Assembly (NCBI GenBank): GCA_002773395.1
Contig: PFBI01000006.1
Coordinates: 156,657-220,656 of the forward strand
Direction of reading: 5' to 3'
Origin: Candidatus Kaiserbacteria bacterium CG10_big_fil_rev_8_21_14_0_10_47_16
GTDB taxonomy: Bacteria > Patescibacteriota > Minisyncoccia > Phycocordibacterales > UBA918
Length of the DNA stretch: 64,000 nt
Part shown: in pieces, positions 7,824 to 59,821 of the stretch
How positions within the stretch are numbered: the first letter of the stretch is position 1
Layout: every line of letters starts with the position of its first letter
The notes under the pieces: model-generated
The model's input: only the letters and a program-made list of their open reading frames with translations
What the model was told of the DNA's origin: nothing
Databases searched by the model: none
Translations under genes and position numbers: made by a program

Positions 7824-8009
7824 ATATTTGTGACCGGTGCAGAATATCATGATATGCGAGTATCGTCACGGGTTTTGTGTATGTCATCACGAGTCACTAA
7901 GTCGCTACGCTCATAAGTGCTGGCGATCCCGCCTCGTCTGTGGCAAAGCCGCATGACTCCGGCTCGGACAAGCTAAAATCCTGACGCAGGTCAGGATTTT
8001 AAACGCTTG

Positions 8010-8082
8010 TCCGCCCACTAGGACTCGAACCTAGGACCGTCTCGTTAAGAGCGAGCTGCTCTACCAACTGAGCTATGGGCGG
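8010..8082 (-). tRNA. tRNA-Lys (anticodon CTT)
   Basis: Reverse complement folds as CCGCCCA-TA-GCTC AGTTGGTA GAGC-A-GCTCG CTCTTAA CGAGA...CTAGG TTCGAGT CCTAG TGGGCGG A. Confidence 0.8.
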
Positions 8083-8397: not shown

Positions 8398-8469
8398 GGC
8401 CAGGTGGCGAAGTGGTAACGCTTCGGTTTGCAAAACCGACATGCACGGGTTCGAACCCCGTCCTGGCCT
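8398..8469 (+). tRNA. tRNA-Cys (anticodon GCA)
   Basis: GGCCAGG-TG-GCG AAGTGGTAA CGC-T-TCGGT TTGCAAA ACCGA...ACGGG TTCGAAC CCCGT CCTGGCC T. CCA is not encoded. Confidence 0.8.
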
Positions 8470-8535
8470 CAAACGAAACGGAGTGAAGTGCAGAGGTCAG
8501 GACAAAAGCGACAACAGTCGCTTTTGTTGAGGTTC

Positions 8536-8616
8536 GAACGGCGGAGCGATGTTTTGGCTATTTCTAATGCCAAAACCGCGAGCCGCGTCCAGCATTCTTA
8601 TGAACGTAGTGAATTA
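8536..8616 (+). ncRNA. conserved ~80-nt hairpin element downstream of tRNA-Cys (copy 1 of 2)
   Basis: cggagcgatgttttggctatttctaatgccaaaaccgcgagccg...cttatgaacgtagtgaattag. It is near-identical to 56216-56300. The stem gttttggc/gccaaaac becomes gtttcggc/gccgaaac in copy 2 (compensatory change). Confidence 0.4.
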
Positions 8617-8682
8617 GAAAAAGCGGGACGAACCCCGTCCTGGCCTCAAACGAAAAACTGCCAGTATACTGGCAGTTTTTTG

Positions 8683-31022: not shown

Positions 31023-31367
31023 CCGGGCTCGGTCACGAATCACTAAGTATATTTTTGCTACGCTAAAATATACTTAGTGTTCTCGACCCGTGAAAAGCAA
31101 TTCAATATTGCTTTTCACCACGCCTCCCTCGTCCACAGGACGCGGCGCTCCGGCTTTCGAGCCGAGGCTCGGCGTCTAACTCTAGTTCACTACGTTCACA
31201 AGAGTTACCTGCCCGAGCATTTGAATTCTTGCATTAGAAATAGCAAAAATATACAAATGCTTTTCGAGCCCGACCGTAGGACGCGCCTGCGTCCTACTCC
31301 CCAAGCACACATACACAAAAACCGCCCTGAGGCGGTTTTTGTGTATGTGTGCTTGGGGCCGGGCTCG
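31023..31367. repeat. ~307-bp insert next to tRNA-Phe, flanked by an exact 19-nt direct repeat of the tRNA 3' end (gtgcttggggccgggctcg at 31023-31041 and 31349-31367)
   Basis: The direct repeat is visible in the sequence. The interior is hairpin-dense and includes a 28-bp perfect palindrome at 31299-31358 that incorporates the tRNA acceptor end. Confidence 0.5.
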
Positions 31368-31422
31368 AACCGGCGACCCCTTCCTCTTCAGGGAAATGCT
31401 CTACCAACTGAGCTACCCAAGC
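31350..31422 (-). tRNA. tRNA-Phe (anticodon GAA)
   Basis: Reverse complement: GCTTGGG-TA-GCTC AGTTGGTA GAGC-A-TTTCC CTGAAGA GGAAG-GGGTC-GCCGG TTCGAGC CCGGC CCCAAGC A. Confidence 0.8.
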
Positions 31423-55149: not shown

Positions 55150-55956
55150 CTAATGGGGCTCTTCTACTGCAAGTTTGATGAAGAACAACGTCAAAATTGC
55201 AAAGATAAAGGCCTGAATGAACCCAACGAAGATCTCAAAGGCCATGAGCGGCACAGGTAGGAAGTACGGTAAGAAAAACAGTACCACGAGAATGAGGGTC
55301 TTTCCAGCAAAAATGTTTCCGAAGAGACGGAATGAAAAAGAGATAAGACGGGCCAATTCACTGATGAACTCAATGATTCCAATAGCGAACGCGAGCGGTG
55401 AGGAGAAGTTGAAGAACTTTCGGAAGTATTTAAAGAATCCAATCGTTACGACGCCGGCAATCTCAATGGCGAAGAACGCAATGAGCGCAAATGCGAGCGT
55501 GATGTTGAGGTCAGCTGCTGCGGGGTGGAAAAGTGTAATGGTGTCCTTTGCACTCTCACTGCCGTGCTCTACCACGGTCGTAAATGTGATTGCTTCAAGT
55601 CCTGGGACCTGCGCCACCCAGTTGATAGCGAGAATAAAGATAAAGATCGTCATAATCAGCGGAAAGTACTGTCGCGCAAGCTTCTTACTTTCAAGTACTT
55701 CTGCAATGTAATTGAACGAGAACCCGATAAGTTCTTCAACAATCAATTGGAACCGTCCCGGACGGAGCGCAAGCTTTGACCGAAGGATAATGACGAGAAT
55801 AATAACGATTGCCATCGCAAGCCACGCCGTGAGGAGGGTGTTGGTGATAGGTAGCCCGAAAAAGTGTCCGAGTATCTCTGGAGATAGATGGATAGGAAGC
55901 GCTGCTCCCTCTGATGCCGTATTTTCTGCTGCGTGTGCTACTGCTATAAATCCCAT
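55150..55956 (-). CDS. atpB: F-type ATP synthase subunit a
   Basis: 268 aa, 5-6 TM, conserved Arg-containing helix (...RLISFSFRLFGN...). Confidence 0.8.
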   Translation of the reverse strand: MGFIAVAHAAENTASEGAALPIHLSPEILGHFFGLPITNTLLTAWLAMAIVIILVIILRSKLALRPGRFQLIVEELIGFSFNYIAEVLESKKLARQYFPLIMTIFIFILAINWVAQVPGLEAITFTTVVEHGSESAKDTITLFHPAAADLNITLAFALIAFFAIEIAGVVTIGFFKYFRKFFNFSSPLAFAIGIIEFISELARLISFSFRLFGNIFAGKTLILVVLFFLPYFLPVPLMAFEIFVGFIQAFIFAILTLFFIKLAVEEPH

Positions 55957-56099: not shown

Positions 56100-56170
56100 G
56101 CGGCCATGGTTAAGTGGTATAACGAGTCCTTGCCAAGGATTAGTCGGGAGTTCGATTCTCCCTGGCCGCA
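56100..56170 (+). tRNA. tRNA-Gly (anticodon GCC)
   Basis: GCGGCCA...AGTCC TTGCCAA GGATT...GGGAG TTCGATT CTCCC TGGCCGC A. Promoter TTGCAT-N17-TATAAT about 30 nt upstream. Confidence 0.8.
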
Positions 56171-56215
56171 CAAACGCGTTAAAAAGACCTCCCCTGCGGG
56201 AGGTCTTTAGCGTTT

Positions 56216-56300
56216 GTGAGCCGGAGCGATGTTTCGGCTATTCCTAATGCCGAAACCGCGAGGCCGGGGAGGAAGTGCTTATGAGCGTAAGCGAATTAGC
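56216..56300 (+). ncRNA. conserved ~80-nt hairpin element downstream of tRNA-Gly (copy 2 of 2)
   Basis: ccggagcgatgtttcggctattcctaatgccgaaaccgcgaggccg...cttatgagcgtaagcgaattag; preceded by a long terminator hairpin (56176-56214). Confidence 0.4.
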
Positions 56301-56338
56301 AACTTGACCCCAATATAGAAAACGTGTGACCCATCCTT

Positions 56339-57088
56339 CTAAATATTTTTCAACGTTTTTTCTCTCAGCTCTTCGTTTTTTCTCTCTAAAGTAGAATACT
56401 TTTCTTTAAAGTCACTACATAATGTAACTAAAGGGTAGTCCTCTACAGCACGATTTACTAAACCCAAAATACCAATTCCTAGATTTGCAGTCATCCAAAG
56501 ATCGGCTTTGTAGTATTTCTCATCTACTACCTCAAAAAATGACACGCTGAATTTACCCTCATTAGTTACCTTCACACCTCTCCACGCATCGATGATATTT
56601 GCATGAACAGATTGAAGCGACGCCCTTTCTTTAAACCCCTTGAGAGAAGAGCTTCCAACTGGATACTGCGCACTCAGCCAGTTGAACATTTTTGTCCTTA
56701 ATTTATCGGACGCTTCAAAAACCCCATTTTTACTCTTTTTTGCAAATTTTCCATGCTCATCAGGGTGAGCTAGGGCAAAAATAGCCCACGCACCAGCTTC
56801 TGAAGCTTGGCGTATATTGAACGCCGTTTGAGATCGATGACGACGGATACTCGAGAGCGCAGCCAACATCAAGTGTTTCTGAGCGAACGAAAAGAAGGTG
56901 ATGAAAATATGAGCATTCTTTCCAGTGTCAACTATTGAAGAGTTCATAAAATTAAAAACTTCCTGAGTATGGATATATAACTCAGTATTTCTAACATCAG
57001 TCTGCATTAATATTTTATTTTCAGTCTCTGCCATCAAAAGTATGTGGTCTGGACTTGAAATAAATAATCTTTTAATTCTGTTCCACAT
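56339..57088 (-). CDS. hypothetical protein, AT-rich orphan gene adjacent to tRNA-Gly
   Basis: 249 aa, no recognizable domain; local GC is visibly lower than the flanks. Confidence 0.45.
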   Translation of the reverse strand: MWNRIKRLFISSPDHILLMAETENKILMQTDVRNTELYIHTQEVFNFMNSSIVDTGKNAHIFITFFSFAQKHLMLAALSSIRRHRSQTAFNIRQASEAGAWAIFALAHPDEHGKFAKKSKNGVFEASDKLRTKMFNWLSAQYPVGSSSLKGFKERASLQSVHANIIDAWRGVKVTNEGKFSVSFFEVVDEKYYKADLWMTANLGIGILGLVNRAVEDYPLVTLCSDFKEKYSTLERKNEELREKTLKNI

Positions 57089-57097
57089 AGTATTCTA

Positions 57098-57130
57098 ATA
57101 TTACCAAAAAACCGGCTCTCGCCGGTTTTT
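57098..57130. terminator. bidirectional terminator
   Basis: caaaaaaccggctctcgccggtttttt. Confidence 0.65.
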
Positions 57131-57133
57131 TAT

Positions 57134-59821
57134 TTACACTGCCACCTTACTCTTTGAATCCTTTTTCTTTAGACTCTTTCGATCTCCTTTCTTCTTTATA
57201 TCGAAGTCTACTTCACCCTTCTTCATTGAGACTGAAACACTTCCCCCTTGGAGCATTCCTTCTCCAACCATCATTGAAGCAACAGGAGTGAGGATCTTTG
57301 ACTGAATCACACGCTTGAGTGGACGCGCACCAAACTTTGGATCGTATCCTTCCTTGGCGATGTAATCGAGCACATCGCGCGTGACGGTAAGTTTAATATC
57401 TTTGTTGTGTAGACGCTTCTGAATGATTTCAATCTGCATCTCAACAATACTGCGAATCGTTTCTGGACTGAGGAGATCAAAGACAATGATCTCATCGAGA
57501 CGGTTGAGGAACTCTGGTCGGAAGTAGGTCTTGAGACTTTCAAGCACCTTGCCTTTCGCCTGTCCATATTGTTCGCCCTCATCGCTGTTTGAGAATCCAA
57601 ACTTCGACATACGGTCAATGTGCTCTGCGCCGATGTTTGAAGTCATGATGACAACTGTGTTTTTGAAGTTTACGCGGCGACCCTTTGCGTCAGTTAAATG
57701 TCCTGAATCAAGTACCTGCAAGAGAATGTTAAAGACTTCAGGGTGCGCCTTTTCAATTTCGTCAAAGAGAATGACTGAGTACGGTCGGTGTCGTACAATT
57801 TCTGTTATCACTCCGCCCTCCTCATGACCAACGTACCCTGGAGGTGATCCAATGATTTTAGACACAGAGTGCTTCTCCATGTACTCACTCATGTCGATCC
57901 GGATGAGTGCTTTCTCATCATCAAACATAAACTCAGCAAGTGCACGTGAAAGCTCTGTCTTCCCCACACCTGTTGGACCAAGGAAAAGGAATGAACCAAT
58001 CGGACGGTTCGGGTCTGCAATACCTGCTCGTGAGCGCTTCACGGCGTCTGCAACAAGCTTTACGGCGTGACCTTGTCCCACAACACGCTTCGTGAGTTCT
58101 TCTTCCATACGAGAGAGTTTCTTCGCTTCTTCTTCGAGCATGCGGGCTACCGGTACACCTGTCCAACGTGATACGACGAGCGCGATGTCTTCTTCAGTCA
58201 CCTCTTCTTTAAGAAGACGACGTGTACGATGGAGCTTCTTCATACGCGCAATCTTATCTTCGAGTTCTTTCTCAAGTTTTGGAATGCGATCGTATCGAAT
58301 TTCTGCAGCACGCGTAAGATCGGCAATTGCTTCTGCCTGCTCTGCTTCAACACGAAGTTCCTCAAGTGTCTTTTTCATTTCACGAATCTCGTTGAGTACG
58401 TCGCGTTCGTTATTCCACTTTGTTTCAAGCGCTTTGGTCATTTCACGAAGTTCACCAATTTCCTTATCGATTTCTCGAAGTCGCTTCCGGAGTTGTGTTT
58501 TCTTTTCAGTGATTTCTTCTTCTTTCTTAAGTGCTTCCTTTTCAATTTCAAGACGACGAACCTTACGATCAGAGACCACAAGTTCCTCTGGCTTATTCTC
58601 AAGTGAGATACGGAGTGCTGATCCAGCTTCATCAATAAGGTCAACTGCCTTGTCAGGAAGGAATCGGTCGGTGATATAGCGTGCAGATAGATTTACCGCT
58701 GCCACAATAGCGTCGTCAGTAATACGGACGCCGTGGAAGAGCTCATACTTCTCCGCAACACCTCGCATAATCGCGATTGCATCTTCGATAGATGGTTCAT
58801 TTACATGGACAGGTTGGAAACGACGGGTAAGTGCTGGGTCTCGTTCAATATATTTTTGATATTCCTTCAGTGTTGTCGCGCCAATAACACGAAGCTCACC
58901 ACGCGCGAGCGCTGGCTTCAGCATGTTTGATGCGTCCATTGTTCCTTCCGCCTGCCCTGCACCGACAATAGTGTGGAGCTCGTCGATAAAGAGAATTACA
59001 TGTCCAGCAGACTGTTCCACTTCTTTCATCACTGCCTTGAGGCGCTCTTCAAATTCTCCGCGGAACTTTGTTCCTGCAACGAGGAGTCCGAGATCGAGTG
59101 AAAGAATTTCTTTATCCTTCACTGATTCTGGAACGTTGCCCTGTACGATTGAAAGTGCGAGACCTTCTGCAATAGCAGTCTTCCCGACACCCGCTTCACC
59201 GATGAGTACGGGGTTGTTCTTCGTTCGGCGAGAGAGAATCTGTACGACGCGTTGGATTTCAACATCACGCCCAATGACGGGGTCGAGTTTATTTTCTTGT
59301 GCAAGCTTTGTGAGGTTGCGTGAGTATTTGCCGAGTGCACGGTATTTCTTCGGTTGTGTTGCATCGTCAATACCACCTTCACGAATTTCAGTGAGTGCGT
59401 TTTCAACCTGCTTCTTATTTACACCCGATTGCTCGAGCGCTTCGATAGCGGGACCTGGGTACTCGAGGAGTGCGAGGAAGAGGTGTTCAACCCCAACGTA
59501 TGCATCATGGAATCCTTCCGCAATGCGGCCTGATTTCTCAATGGCGCTCGCAAGGTCTGGTGTGAGATAGAGTTGGTATGATTGTGAAATAGCACCTCCC
59601 ATCTCTGGACCATCAAGTGCTTCGAGGAGCAGGTCGGTGAGAGCGATGACGTCGATGTCGAGTCGGTCCAAAATAGCAATAACGGTGTTCTCTTCCTGCA
59701 TCACCAAAGCAGCCAACAGGTGGGTTGGACTGACGTGATTTTGACCGCGTTCAATAGCGATTTCATGGGCTTTTCGGATTGCCTCTTTCGCGCGGGATGT
59801 GAAGTTGTTGAAATTTGGCAT
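57134..59821 (-). CDS. clpB: ATP-dependent chaperone ClpB
   Basis: 895 aa, two AAA+ modules (GEAGVGKT..., GPTGVGKT...), long coiled-coil M-domain. Confidence 0.95.

Follow-up and report, generated by a model that had tools for sequence, protein, structure and literature searches.

Patescibacteria, the bacteria of the Candidate Phyla Radiation (CPR), have tiny genomes, and their resistance to phages is poorly understood. The described proteins that come closest to the one considered here are those encoded by single genes in defence islands or acting in abortive infection, such as the HEPN-type proteins AbiU2 and AbiV and the products of Shedu-neighbourhood genes; the closest described genomic arrangement is that of tRNA-integrated islands, which carry a tyrosine integrase and have attL and attR as repeats of the tRNA 3' end. 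We analysed a stretch of 64,000 nucleotides (nt) from Candidatus Kaiserbacteria bacterium CG10_big_fil_rev_8_21_14_0_10_47_16 (contig PFBI01000006.1, positions 156,657 to 220,656; the window below) with respect to an open reading frame (ORF) of 249 amino acids (aa), ORF249, and to the non-coding sequence that separates it from a tRNA-Gly gene. An initial annotation of the window had described ORF249, at 56339-57088 on the minus strand, as flanked by atpB and clpB and near tRNA-Gly, which was confirmed, and had proposed that it is an orphan gene carried by a tRNA-targeted islet. We found that ORF249 is a real gene of a widespread, unnamed protein family, and we give an approximately even chance to the combined claim that it is a horizontally acquired accessory gene of the defence-island type.

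The ORF249 family shares several properties with the single-gene defence and abortive-infection proteins. It is small, standalone, AT-rich and patchy in its distribution; it occurs in defence islands and integrase islets, once overlapping an AbiU2 gene in the manner of an operon; and its members are all-alpha proteins with conserved Arg, His and Glu residues, some of them with transmembrane segments. With tRNA-integrated islands, ORF249 has in common its position on the 3' side of a tRNA gene, its atypical composition and its cargo-like character.

The relatives of the ORF249 protein were sought in two sequence collections. A word-indexed search of about 15 billion proteins returned the protein itself only, and 10 proteins when a profile was used. 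An exhaustive phmmer (HMMER) search of 1.84 billion representatives of clusters formed at 50% identity returned 348 proteins at E<=1e-3, of which 204 reached E<=1e-10 and 7 reached E<=1e-30, so that the gene is not an orphan. The homologues, nearly all of them 230-270 aa long, align with ORF249 from end to end at 22-38% identity. No protein in the collection searched was more than 38% identical to it, although the genes of the nearest relative are included there; the atp operon of that relative was seen on 23 contigs. Across 83 aligned homologues, R82, E97 and H162 are invariant, and E23, L75, S79, H84, Q87, R93, W137, K153, F185 and D186 are near-invariant, those other than L75 being kept at 90% or more. 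These positions make up the conserved motifs LSxxRxHxxQxxxxLRxxxE and NxxxAHAN. When supplied with the family alignment, AlphaFold2 produced a confident all-alpha model (predicted local distance difference test, pLDDT, 92.9; predicted template modelling score, pTM, 0.89), whereas the model from the single sequence was unusable (pLDDT 39). Collectively, the 348 homologous clusters, the conserved residues and the confident fold establish that ORF249 is a real gene. No description of the family was found in literature searches.

The base composition of ORF249 was ranked among 64 ORFs of the window that do not overlap one another and are 80 aa or longer. As the initial annotation had suspected, the gene is poorer in GC than its neighbours: its GC content of 0.380 is the lowest of the 64 (window ORF mean 0.470, standard deviation 0.028; z = -3.3), and a sliding GC profile has its trough at the same place. 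The homologues behave similarly, the family gene being more AT-rich than its own locus in all seven homologue loci measured (-0.009 to -0.116), at host GC contents from 0.38 to 0.64. Because ORF249 has the lowest GC content in the window, no homologue above 38% identity and relatives scattered patchily over hosts of 38-64% GC, a foreign origin is supported, in line with the horizontal acquisition proposed earlier.

Ten homologue neighbourhoods outside the source organism were then considered, and defence or mobile-element genes were present in six of them, a count that has no genome-wide background rate behind it. In a CPR-like genome (L184), homologue P0009 has PLDc_2/RE_NgoFVII, SduA_C (Shedu), PDDEXK_1 and SLFN_AlbA_2 genes to one flank, DUF2726 and Pif1/RNase H genes to the opposite one, and a Zeta toxin gene near. 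P0003 (L179) and the stop of a HEPN_AbiU2 gene (E 1.2e-17) overlap over 4 nt, in an islet that also encodes three helix-turn-helix proteins and a phage integrase. In another CPR-like genome (L180), a MazG-like gene and a SLFN-g3-helicase/Peptidase_S24 gene lie immediately upstream of P0004. P0005 (L182) is two genes away from a pP_pnuc_1-like nuclease and has a tRNA-Gly(CCC) gene at 1.8 kb, and P0070 (L006) lies among unannotated genes and a phage integrase. A plasmid homologue was found in one of 72,556 plasmids, pCB4 of Caulobacter henricii (L054), where it adjoins an AbiEii/AbiGii toxin gene and a primase-polymerase gene, with a TIR protein at 8 kb; the phage collection contained no homologue. 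These six contexts are the basis for associating the family with defence, and they agree with the earlier suggestion of acquired cargo, among which defence or toxin genes are often found. The patchy distribution, the systematic AT bias, the solitary occurrence and the defence or mobile neighbours in six of the ten contexts together give the profile of a defence-island gene.

Given this profile, we propose that ORF249, a real, expressed-looking accessory gene, was acquired horizontally by a Kaiserbacteria-like (Patescibacteria) genome. Its product is a predicted all-alpha protein of about 230-250 aa from a widespread unnamed family whose members occur repeatedly as single genes in defence islands and small integrase islets. 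Our best guess, from context and conservation, is that it is a standalone protein of the defence or abortive-infection type, either an effector or a sensor. The invariant polar set R82, E97 and H162, with H84, Q87, R93, K153 and D186, suggests a pocket for catalysis or ligand binding, perhaps that of a nuclease or RNase; confidence in any specific enzymatic activity is far lower than in the combined claim. Delivery of the gene would have left no detectable sign of site-specific integration at the tRNA, and the hairpin and motif beside it are an independent, non-coding structured element.

Two homologues, P0053 and P0085, carry N-terminal extensions with several predicted transmembrane helices, which hints that in some systems the domain acts at the membrane. 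No Pfam domain was detected on the extended members, and fusions to known domains are absent throughout the family. The sole Pfam family matched by more than three members was DUF5677 (PF18928), with 6 of the 83 members and a best E of 0.0088. Like the ORF249 family it is an uncharacterised bacterial family; the two differ in that every match was sub-threshold and none came from the window protein, ORF249 itself having no DUF5677 match. A DUF5677 ORF was chosen as a candidate for anti-phage testing in a 2025 preprint (PMC12632615).

Several results weigh against a defence gene of foreign origin. As the initial annotation had stated, ORF249 has no recognizable domain: its protein matched nothing in Pfam, NCBIfam, PADLOC (PADLOC-DB 2.0) or PHROG, and the 83 family members gave nothing usable against Pfam, NCBIfam, PADLOC and PHROGs, the matches to PADLOC being scattered single ones at E>=0.0019. 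The family thus differs from the known single-gene defence proteins in having no PADLOC or Pfam defence match. It also lacks the canonical HEPN motif Rx4-6H among its conserved positions, and hhalign against the AbiU2 protein that adjoins the homologue in L179 indicated no relation (probability 0.3%). A Foldseek comparison of the ORF249 model with PDB and BFVD returned nothing significant (best E 0.13 and 0.31, respectively), and the HEPN-containing structures 6qzt and 2q00, the latter of which we take to be a HEPN protein, matched the model weakly, with probabilities of 0.38-0.60 only. In a sequence-profile search of PDB, the hits to designed armadillo repeats (spurious) and to an aldehyde decarbonylase (weak) were not accepted. 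With respect to context, the ten neighbourhoods are a small, non-random sample, and four of them contain housekeeping genes only, including those of P0153 in Anaerolineae (L003-L005), P0002 (L178) and P0014 (L183), which has a 4-nt overlap with dnaE. With respect to origin, the GC content at third codon positions (GC3) of ORF249 (0.357, rank 6 of 64, z = -1.45) and its codon-usage likelihood (8th lowest of 64) are only moderately off. Finally, no relative with an empty clpB/tRNA-Gly site was found, the contigs of the closest relative ending at tRNA-Gly or at the element behind it.

The moderate deviation of GC3 and codon usage implies that the low GC content of ORF249 comes partly from its amino-acid composition, that is, from codon positions 1 and 2. 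It is therefore conceivable that the gene is native and vertically inherited within its lineage, its low GC content reflecting amino-acid composition and fast evolution, and that it serves a housekeeping or niche role and not defence. The start region of the gene would fit such an origin. Directly before the ATG of M1, at 57089-57105 on the minus strand, lies a putative -10 region, ATTAGAATACT, which resembles the -10-like box before atpB (GTTAGAATACG), and on this ground ORF249 appears to be adapted to local expression signals. A consensus scan for sigma-70 promoters called no site at 57089-57105. A TTAGAATAC box near the start codon is common to atpB and ORF249 and is possibly a local -10 element of genes with short or absent leaders. 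Beyond the native-looking box, there are no mobility genes near ORF249, and several homologues lie among housekeeping genes, the one overlapping dnaE included. Set against these points are the lowest GC content in the window, the failure to find an orthologue in any relative, and a family scattered over unrelated hosts, more AT-rich than the host in all 8 loci and with defence neighbours. Considering both sides, we regard a native origin as unlikely.

Under the reading that we prefer, that of a horizontally acquired gene of the defence-island type, the question remained whether the gene arrived by integration at tRNA-Gly, as the initial annotation had supposed. The tRNA-Gly(GCC) gene, on which ARAGORN and Rfam agree, occupies 56100-56171 on the plus strand and is convergent with ORF249. 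The gap between clpB and tRNA-Gly measures 0.9 kb; ORF249 is its sole ORF, and it holds no integrase, no pseudogene and no second ORF. The presence of an att-type repeat was assessed by aligning the 3' half of tRNA-Gly, extended by 14 nt of its trailer, with 56186-57400 on both strands. The scores obtained, 15 and 19, are not above those of random window segments (mean 19.6, 95th percentile 22), whereas tRNA-Cys, the positive control in the same test, scored 54 (an exact repeat of 27 nt). No meaningful flanking repeats bracket ORF249 either. With neither an integrase nor a repeat of tRNA-Gly, tRNA-specific integration of ORF249 is not supported. The locus departs from tRNA-integrated islands in these two respects as well as in its size of about 0.9 kb and in that its tRNA-proximal sequence belongs to another, older element.

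The conservation of the gene order was examined in relatives. Among 40 GTDB species representatives with a related AtpB (at most 62% identity, apart from one partial match at 72%), neither clpB nor tRNA-Gly(GCC) nor ORF249 lies near atpB, and in two relatives with AtpB at 65-66% identity, adenine glycosylase and murein genes are found upstream of atpB. In the closest relative, whose AtpB is 76% identical, the downstream gene order matches as far as gyrB, and a tRNA-Gly(GCC) gene lies upstream of atpB; this tRNA gene was observed together with the element at L047 1-172 (Logan SRR26786840), L048 and L049. All contigs of the closest relative that were read end at most about 310 nt upstream of atpB, inside or just past tRNA-Gly and the element, which suggests that the repeated element breaks short-read assemblies.

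A weaker form of the integration proposal is that ORF249 is the last cargo gene of a decayed island at tRNA-Gly, whose integrase has been lost and whose attR has eroded. The gene does adjoin a tRNA and does have an atypical composition; members of the family occur in integrase-bearing islets, one of them 1.8 kb from tRNA-Gly(CCC); and the tRNA-Cys locus demonstrates that duplications of tRNA 3' ends do occur in this genome. However, the 0.9-kb gap contains neither an integrase nor a pseudogene, and the search for a repeat of the tRNA-Gly 3' end gave background scores. What lies between this tRNA and ORF249 is entirely explained by a lineage-wide element that predates the split from the nearest relative, and the tRNA-Cys duplication flanks a non-coding element of about 150 nt only, with no cargo. 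We consider a decayed island improbable.

The element in question begins where the initial annotation had placed a long terminator hairpin followed by a conserved motif, and both features are present. The hairpin spans 56171-56216 on the plus strand (arms 56171-56193 and 56198-56216), its first base being the last base of tRNA-Gly, and its 46 nt read CAAACGC...AAAAAGACCTCCC CTGC GGGAGGTCTTT...GCGTTTG with CTGC as the loop. It had been taken for a terminator belonging to tRNA-Gly; hairpins of the same type, with a CUGC-type tetraloop, recur at other copies of the element, and the hairpin is the conserved CUGC-loop module of an element that trails tRNA genes. It can serve as a terminator for both convergent transcripts, with 5 T on the minus strand. 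The core of the element (the motif of about 80-100 nt) follows at 56216-56315 on the plus strand and is matched by a covariance model with 91 bits (E 1.8e-20), the best score in the window, although its target-derived outer stem is degraded. It consists of CGGAG, a variable hairpin and CGAG, then a stem that closes a conserved CUUAUGAGCGUAAGCGAAUUAG hairpin.

The initial annotation had read this shared motif as the marker of an islet. Within the window, the core follows four of the six tRNA genes. The tRNA-Cys copy (8536-8633, plus strand) comes after tRNA-Cys (8398-8470) and has an exact 27-nt repeat of the tRNA-Cys 3' end behind it; its 41-nt core is 93% identical to that of the tRNA-Gly copy, and the hairpins of the two differ by compensatory changes (GTTTCGGC/GCCGAAAC vs GTTTTGGC/GCCAAAAC). 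A third, diverged copy (7881-7967, minus strand) follows tRNA-Lys(CTT) (8009-8082, minus strand), and a fourth (31167-31265, minus strand) follows tRNA-Phe (31349-31422, minus strand), where a weaker tandem core (31034-31128, minus strand; E 0.08) and a copy of the tRNA-Phe 3' end come next. The extents of the elements in the window, non-coding and of about 150-200 nt, are 56171-56315 (+), 8479-8655 (+), 7881-8008 (-) and 31034-31348 (-).

The spread of the element was assessed in metagenomes with a pattern of two blocks, CGGAG N35-60 CTTATGARCGTA N2-3 GAMTTAG, which matched in at least 118 stretches. The counts that follow, over 84 analysed instances, 80 loci or 46 tRNA-adjacent copies, are among the matches listed. 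Fifty of the 84 instances are found downstream of a tRNA on the same strand, at distances of 47-305 nt (median 84 nt) and with 29 anticodons represented, and other copies come after the stop codons of clpP (6 loci) and fusA, encoding EF-G (4 loci). These two upstream genes were the sole protein families that recurred beside the motif; no recombinase, transposase or reverse transcriptase was recurrent near the element, and 0 of 80 other motif loci had an ORF249 homologue. The covariance model also matched relatives within Patescibacteria (L009, L011, L027 three times, L039 and L052), with no match in the Chloroflexota, Nitrospirota, Thermodesulfobacteriota or Bacillus loci examined. The element is therefore a Patescibacteria-wide one that trails tRNA, clpP and fusA genes, and the motif does not mark an islet. 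A weak possible copy was observed on a viral contig, IMG/VR IMGVR_UViG_3300043676_000033 (L055 3177-3257, minus strand; 30 bits, E 1.4e-4); the other four of five pattern matches on viral contigs appeared to be chance matches inside other sequence.

The structure of the element was derived from 68 distinct copies, in which the conservation of the retrieval blocks is due to ascertainment. The supported fold has two stems around a GGA/GA internal loop and a long irregular hairpin with the conserved CUUAUGAGCGUA(A)GCGAAUUAG, which pairs with itself through a tandem G-A loop under a GUA or GUAA cap. In this fold 97.4% of cells were paired vs 76.0% in shuffles, the covariation score was 0.53 vs 0.148 for shuffles and at most 0.095 for slid partners, and double changes occurred in 11 of 18 base pairs. 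The compensatory changes support a common fold and hence a conserved structured RNA or single-stranded DNA element. No entry of Rfam 15 covered the motif even at E<=10, the tRNA alone passing, and literature searches found no description of it. Several other identities for the motif were rejected: a small peptide ORF, as its reading frame lacks conservation; domains V/VI of a group II intron, as the motif is too short and has no upstream domains; a hammerhead or other ribozyme, as there is no Rfam match and the core does not fit; a retroviral-type primer-binding site, as the antisense segment is not anchored at the tRNA 3' terminus; and a transfer-messenger RNA (tmRNA) or tRNA-like domain, as the same layout occurs after protein genes.

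A full element has an ordered anatomy. The 3' end of the gene (X), with its trailer or terminator, is followed by an antisense copy (X'), the two forming a giant palindrome centred on the terminator, with the CUGC-type tetraloop hairpin inserted in X'. The covarying core comes next and then a direct copy of the gene 3' end (X''), behind which there is often a second terminator that is homologous to the first one though it has diverged. Of the 46 tRNA-adjacent copies, 24 repeat 12 nt or more of the 3' end of their own tRNA downstream in direct orientation, and 25 have an antisense copy upstream; in a control with other tRNAs, the number of direct or antisense 3'-end copies was 0. Examples with own-target arms among metagenome loci L060-L139 are L127, L068, L087, L096 and L100. 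At tRNA-Cys, an exact direct repeat of 27 nt (8452-8478 and 8629-8655; CGAACCCCGTCCTGGCCTCAAACGAAA, 3' end plus trailer) brackets the element, and the real intrinsic terminator lies past the second repeat copy, at 8656-8682. This repeat looks like an att-type duplication with neither cargo nor integrase. The tRNA-Gly copy has no tRNA-derived arms. Its junction reads TGAGC-CGGAG, compared with GCGAGCCAGGGAGAATCGAAAGG-CGGAG in the relative L047, and this difference suggests that the arms were lost by deletion between two GGAG repeats. As L047 has the same element after tRNA-Gly, the element was at this tRNA before the split from the nearest sampled relative.

Possible analogies for such locus-specific arms are retro-insertion, folded-hairpin recombination sites, cis-acting RNA switches, and synthesis at terminators by snap-back or template switching. 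Among known systems, integrase-less cis-mobilizable elements (CIMEs), miniature inverted-repeat transposable elements (MITEs), the folded-hairpin recombination sites integron attC and the attP of CTX-phi, and RNAs that are tRNA-like or linked to terminators resemble the element in its length of about 150-200 nt, its non-coding nature, its place at gene 3' ends and its strong secondary structure, and in that about half of its copies have a direct copy of the target 3' end and an antisense copy that creates a palindrome. It is distinguished from these systems by the absence of an associated recombinase, by RNA-like covariation with tandem G-A loops and a GNRA-type loop, by targets that comprise any tRNA isoacceptor as well as clpP and fusA, and by the lack of an Rfam 15 match.

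Given that the element ends about 10-25 nt before the stop codon of ORF249, the gene is not its cargo. It could still be that ORF249 works with the adjoining element or tRNA, by binding, processing or mobilising the element; the two are about 25 nt apart and convergent, and their transcripts could overlap. However, no homologue was in reach at any of the 80 other motif loci, a tRNA was near the family gene in only one of the ten homologue contexts, and the covariance model found no tRNA-trailing motif in the four contexts scanned. Such a partnership is thus very improbable. The zero count at the 80 loci and the presence of the element at the tRNA-Gly of L047 indicate that gene and motif are independent. 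That ORF249 is a chance open frame in an AT-rich spacer, as the missing Shine-Dalgarno sequence and curated domain might imply, is scarcely credible in view of its 348 homologues, conserved motifs and confident fold and of the lack of a Shine-Dalgarno sequence upstream of all seven other genes checked as well (atpB, atpE, atpF, atpA, clpB, leuS and infB).

The gene and the element can also be joined in a broader reading, which we put forward only tentatively. ORF249 would represent a new single-gene family for defence against phages or plasmids, with a fold unseen in PDB or BFVD, in the ultra-small genomes of Patescibacteria, and the adjoining motif would belong to an undescribed Patescibacteria-wide structured element of about 150-200 nt. 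This element would colonise the highly expressed genes clpP and fusA as well as tRNA genes, whatever the isoacceptor, at their 3' ends, and its antisense and direct copies of its own target would point either to an insertion mechanism that copies the target and has no recombinase associated with it or to an RNA switch that acts in cis on the formation of 3' ends. As a compact single-gene family found beside Shedu, Schlafen-like and Abi genes, with an unmatched fold, the ORF249 family is a cheap test candidate for a new defence activity. A false lead is also removed, since the motif is a common tRNA-trailing element and adjacency to a tRNA together with this motif is therefore no sign of an island in this lineage. 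The more surprising object is the element itself, which shows strong covariation, has no Rfam entry, is abundant in metagenomes and is furnished with locus-specific copies of target 3' ends; if it is mobile, its mechanism would lie outside the standard ones.

The remaining features of the locus are as follows. Translation of ORF249 from M1 gives 249 aa, and from M19 (ATG at 57032-57034) 231 aa; the latter start is the one called for the identical gene on JGI contigs of the same organism, which are up to 624 kb long. Upstream of ORF249 and on the same strand is clpB (57134-59821, minus strand), which encodes 895 aa with the Pfam domains Clp_N, AAA, AAA_2 and ClpB_D2-small; ORF249 is thus co-directional with and downstream of clpB, and its 3' end points to the motif and tRNA-Gly. 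A hairpin at 57106-57131 (unstranded), resembling a bidirectional intrinsic terminator, consists of a perfect 11-bp stem, AAAAAACCGGC / GCCGGTTTTTT, with a 4-nt loop, flanked by an A-tract and, on the opposite side, a T-tract. The initial annotation had ORF249 ending at this hairpin, which in fact lies at the start of the gene, between it and the clpB stop. On the other side, atpB, for ATP synthase subunit a (55150-55956, minus strand), is the first gene of the atp operon and is divergent from tRNA-Gly; the best matches of AtpB point to a Kaiserbacteria-like Patescibacterium. The gene order at the locus is leuS, clpB, ORF249, tRNA-Gly, the atp operon, ahpC, dnaG and rpoD. In other Patescibacteria-like genomes, defence islands lie within about 10 kb of dnaG-rpoD (L184 5184-13672 and L180 6890-10729), and their genes include Shedu SduA_C, a PLD-type restriction enzyme, PDDEXK, Schlafen AlbA_2, DUF2726, and MazG with a SLFN helicase. 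The dnaG-rpoD pair is also found beyond the atp operon in this window, and its surroundings may form a variable region that is conserved among these small genomes.

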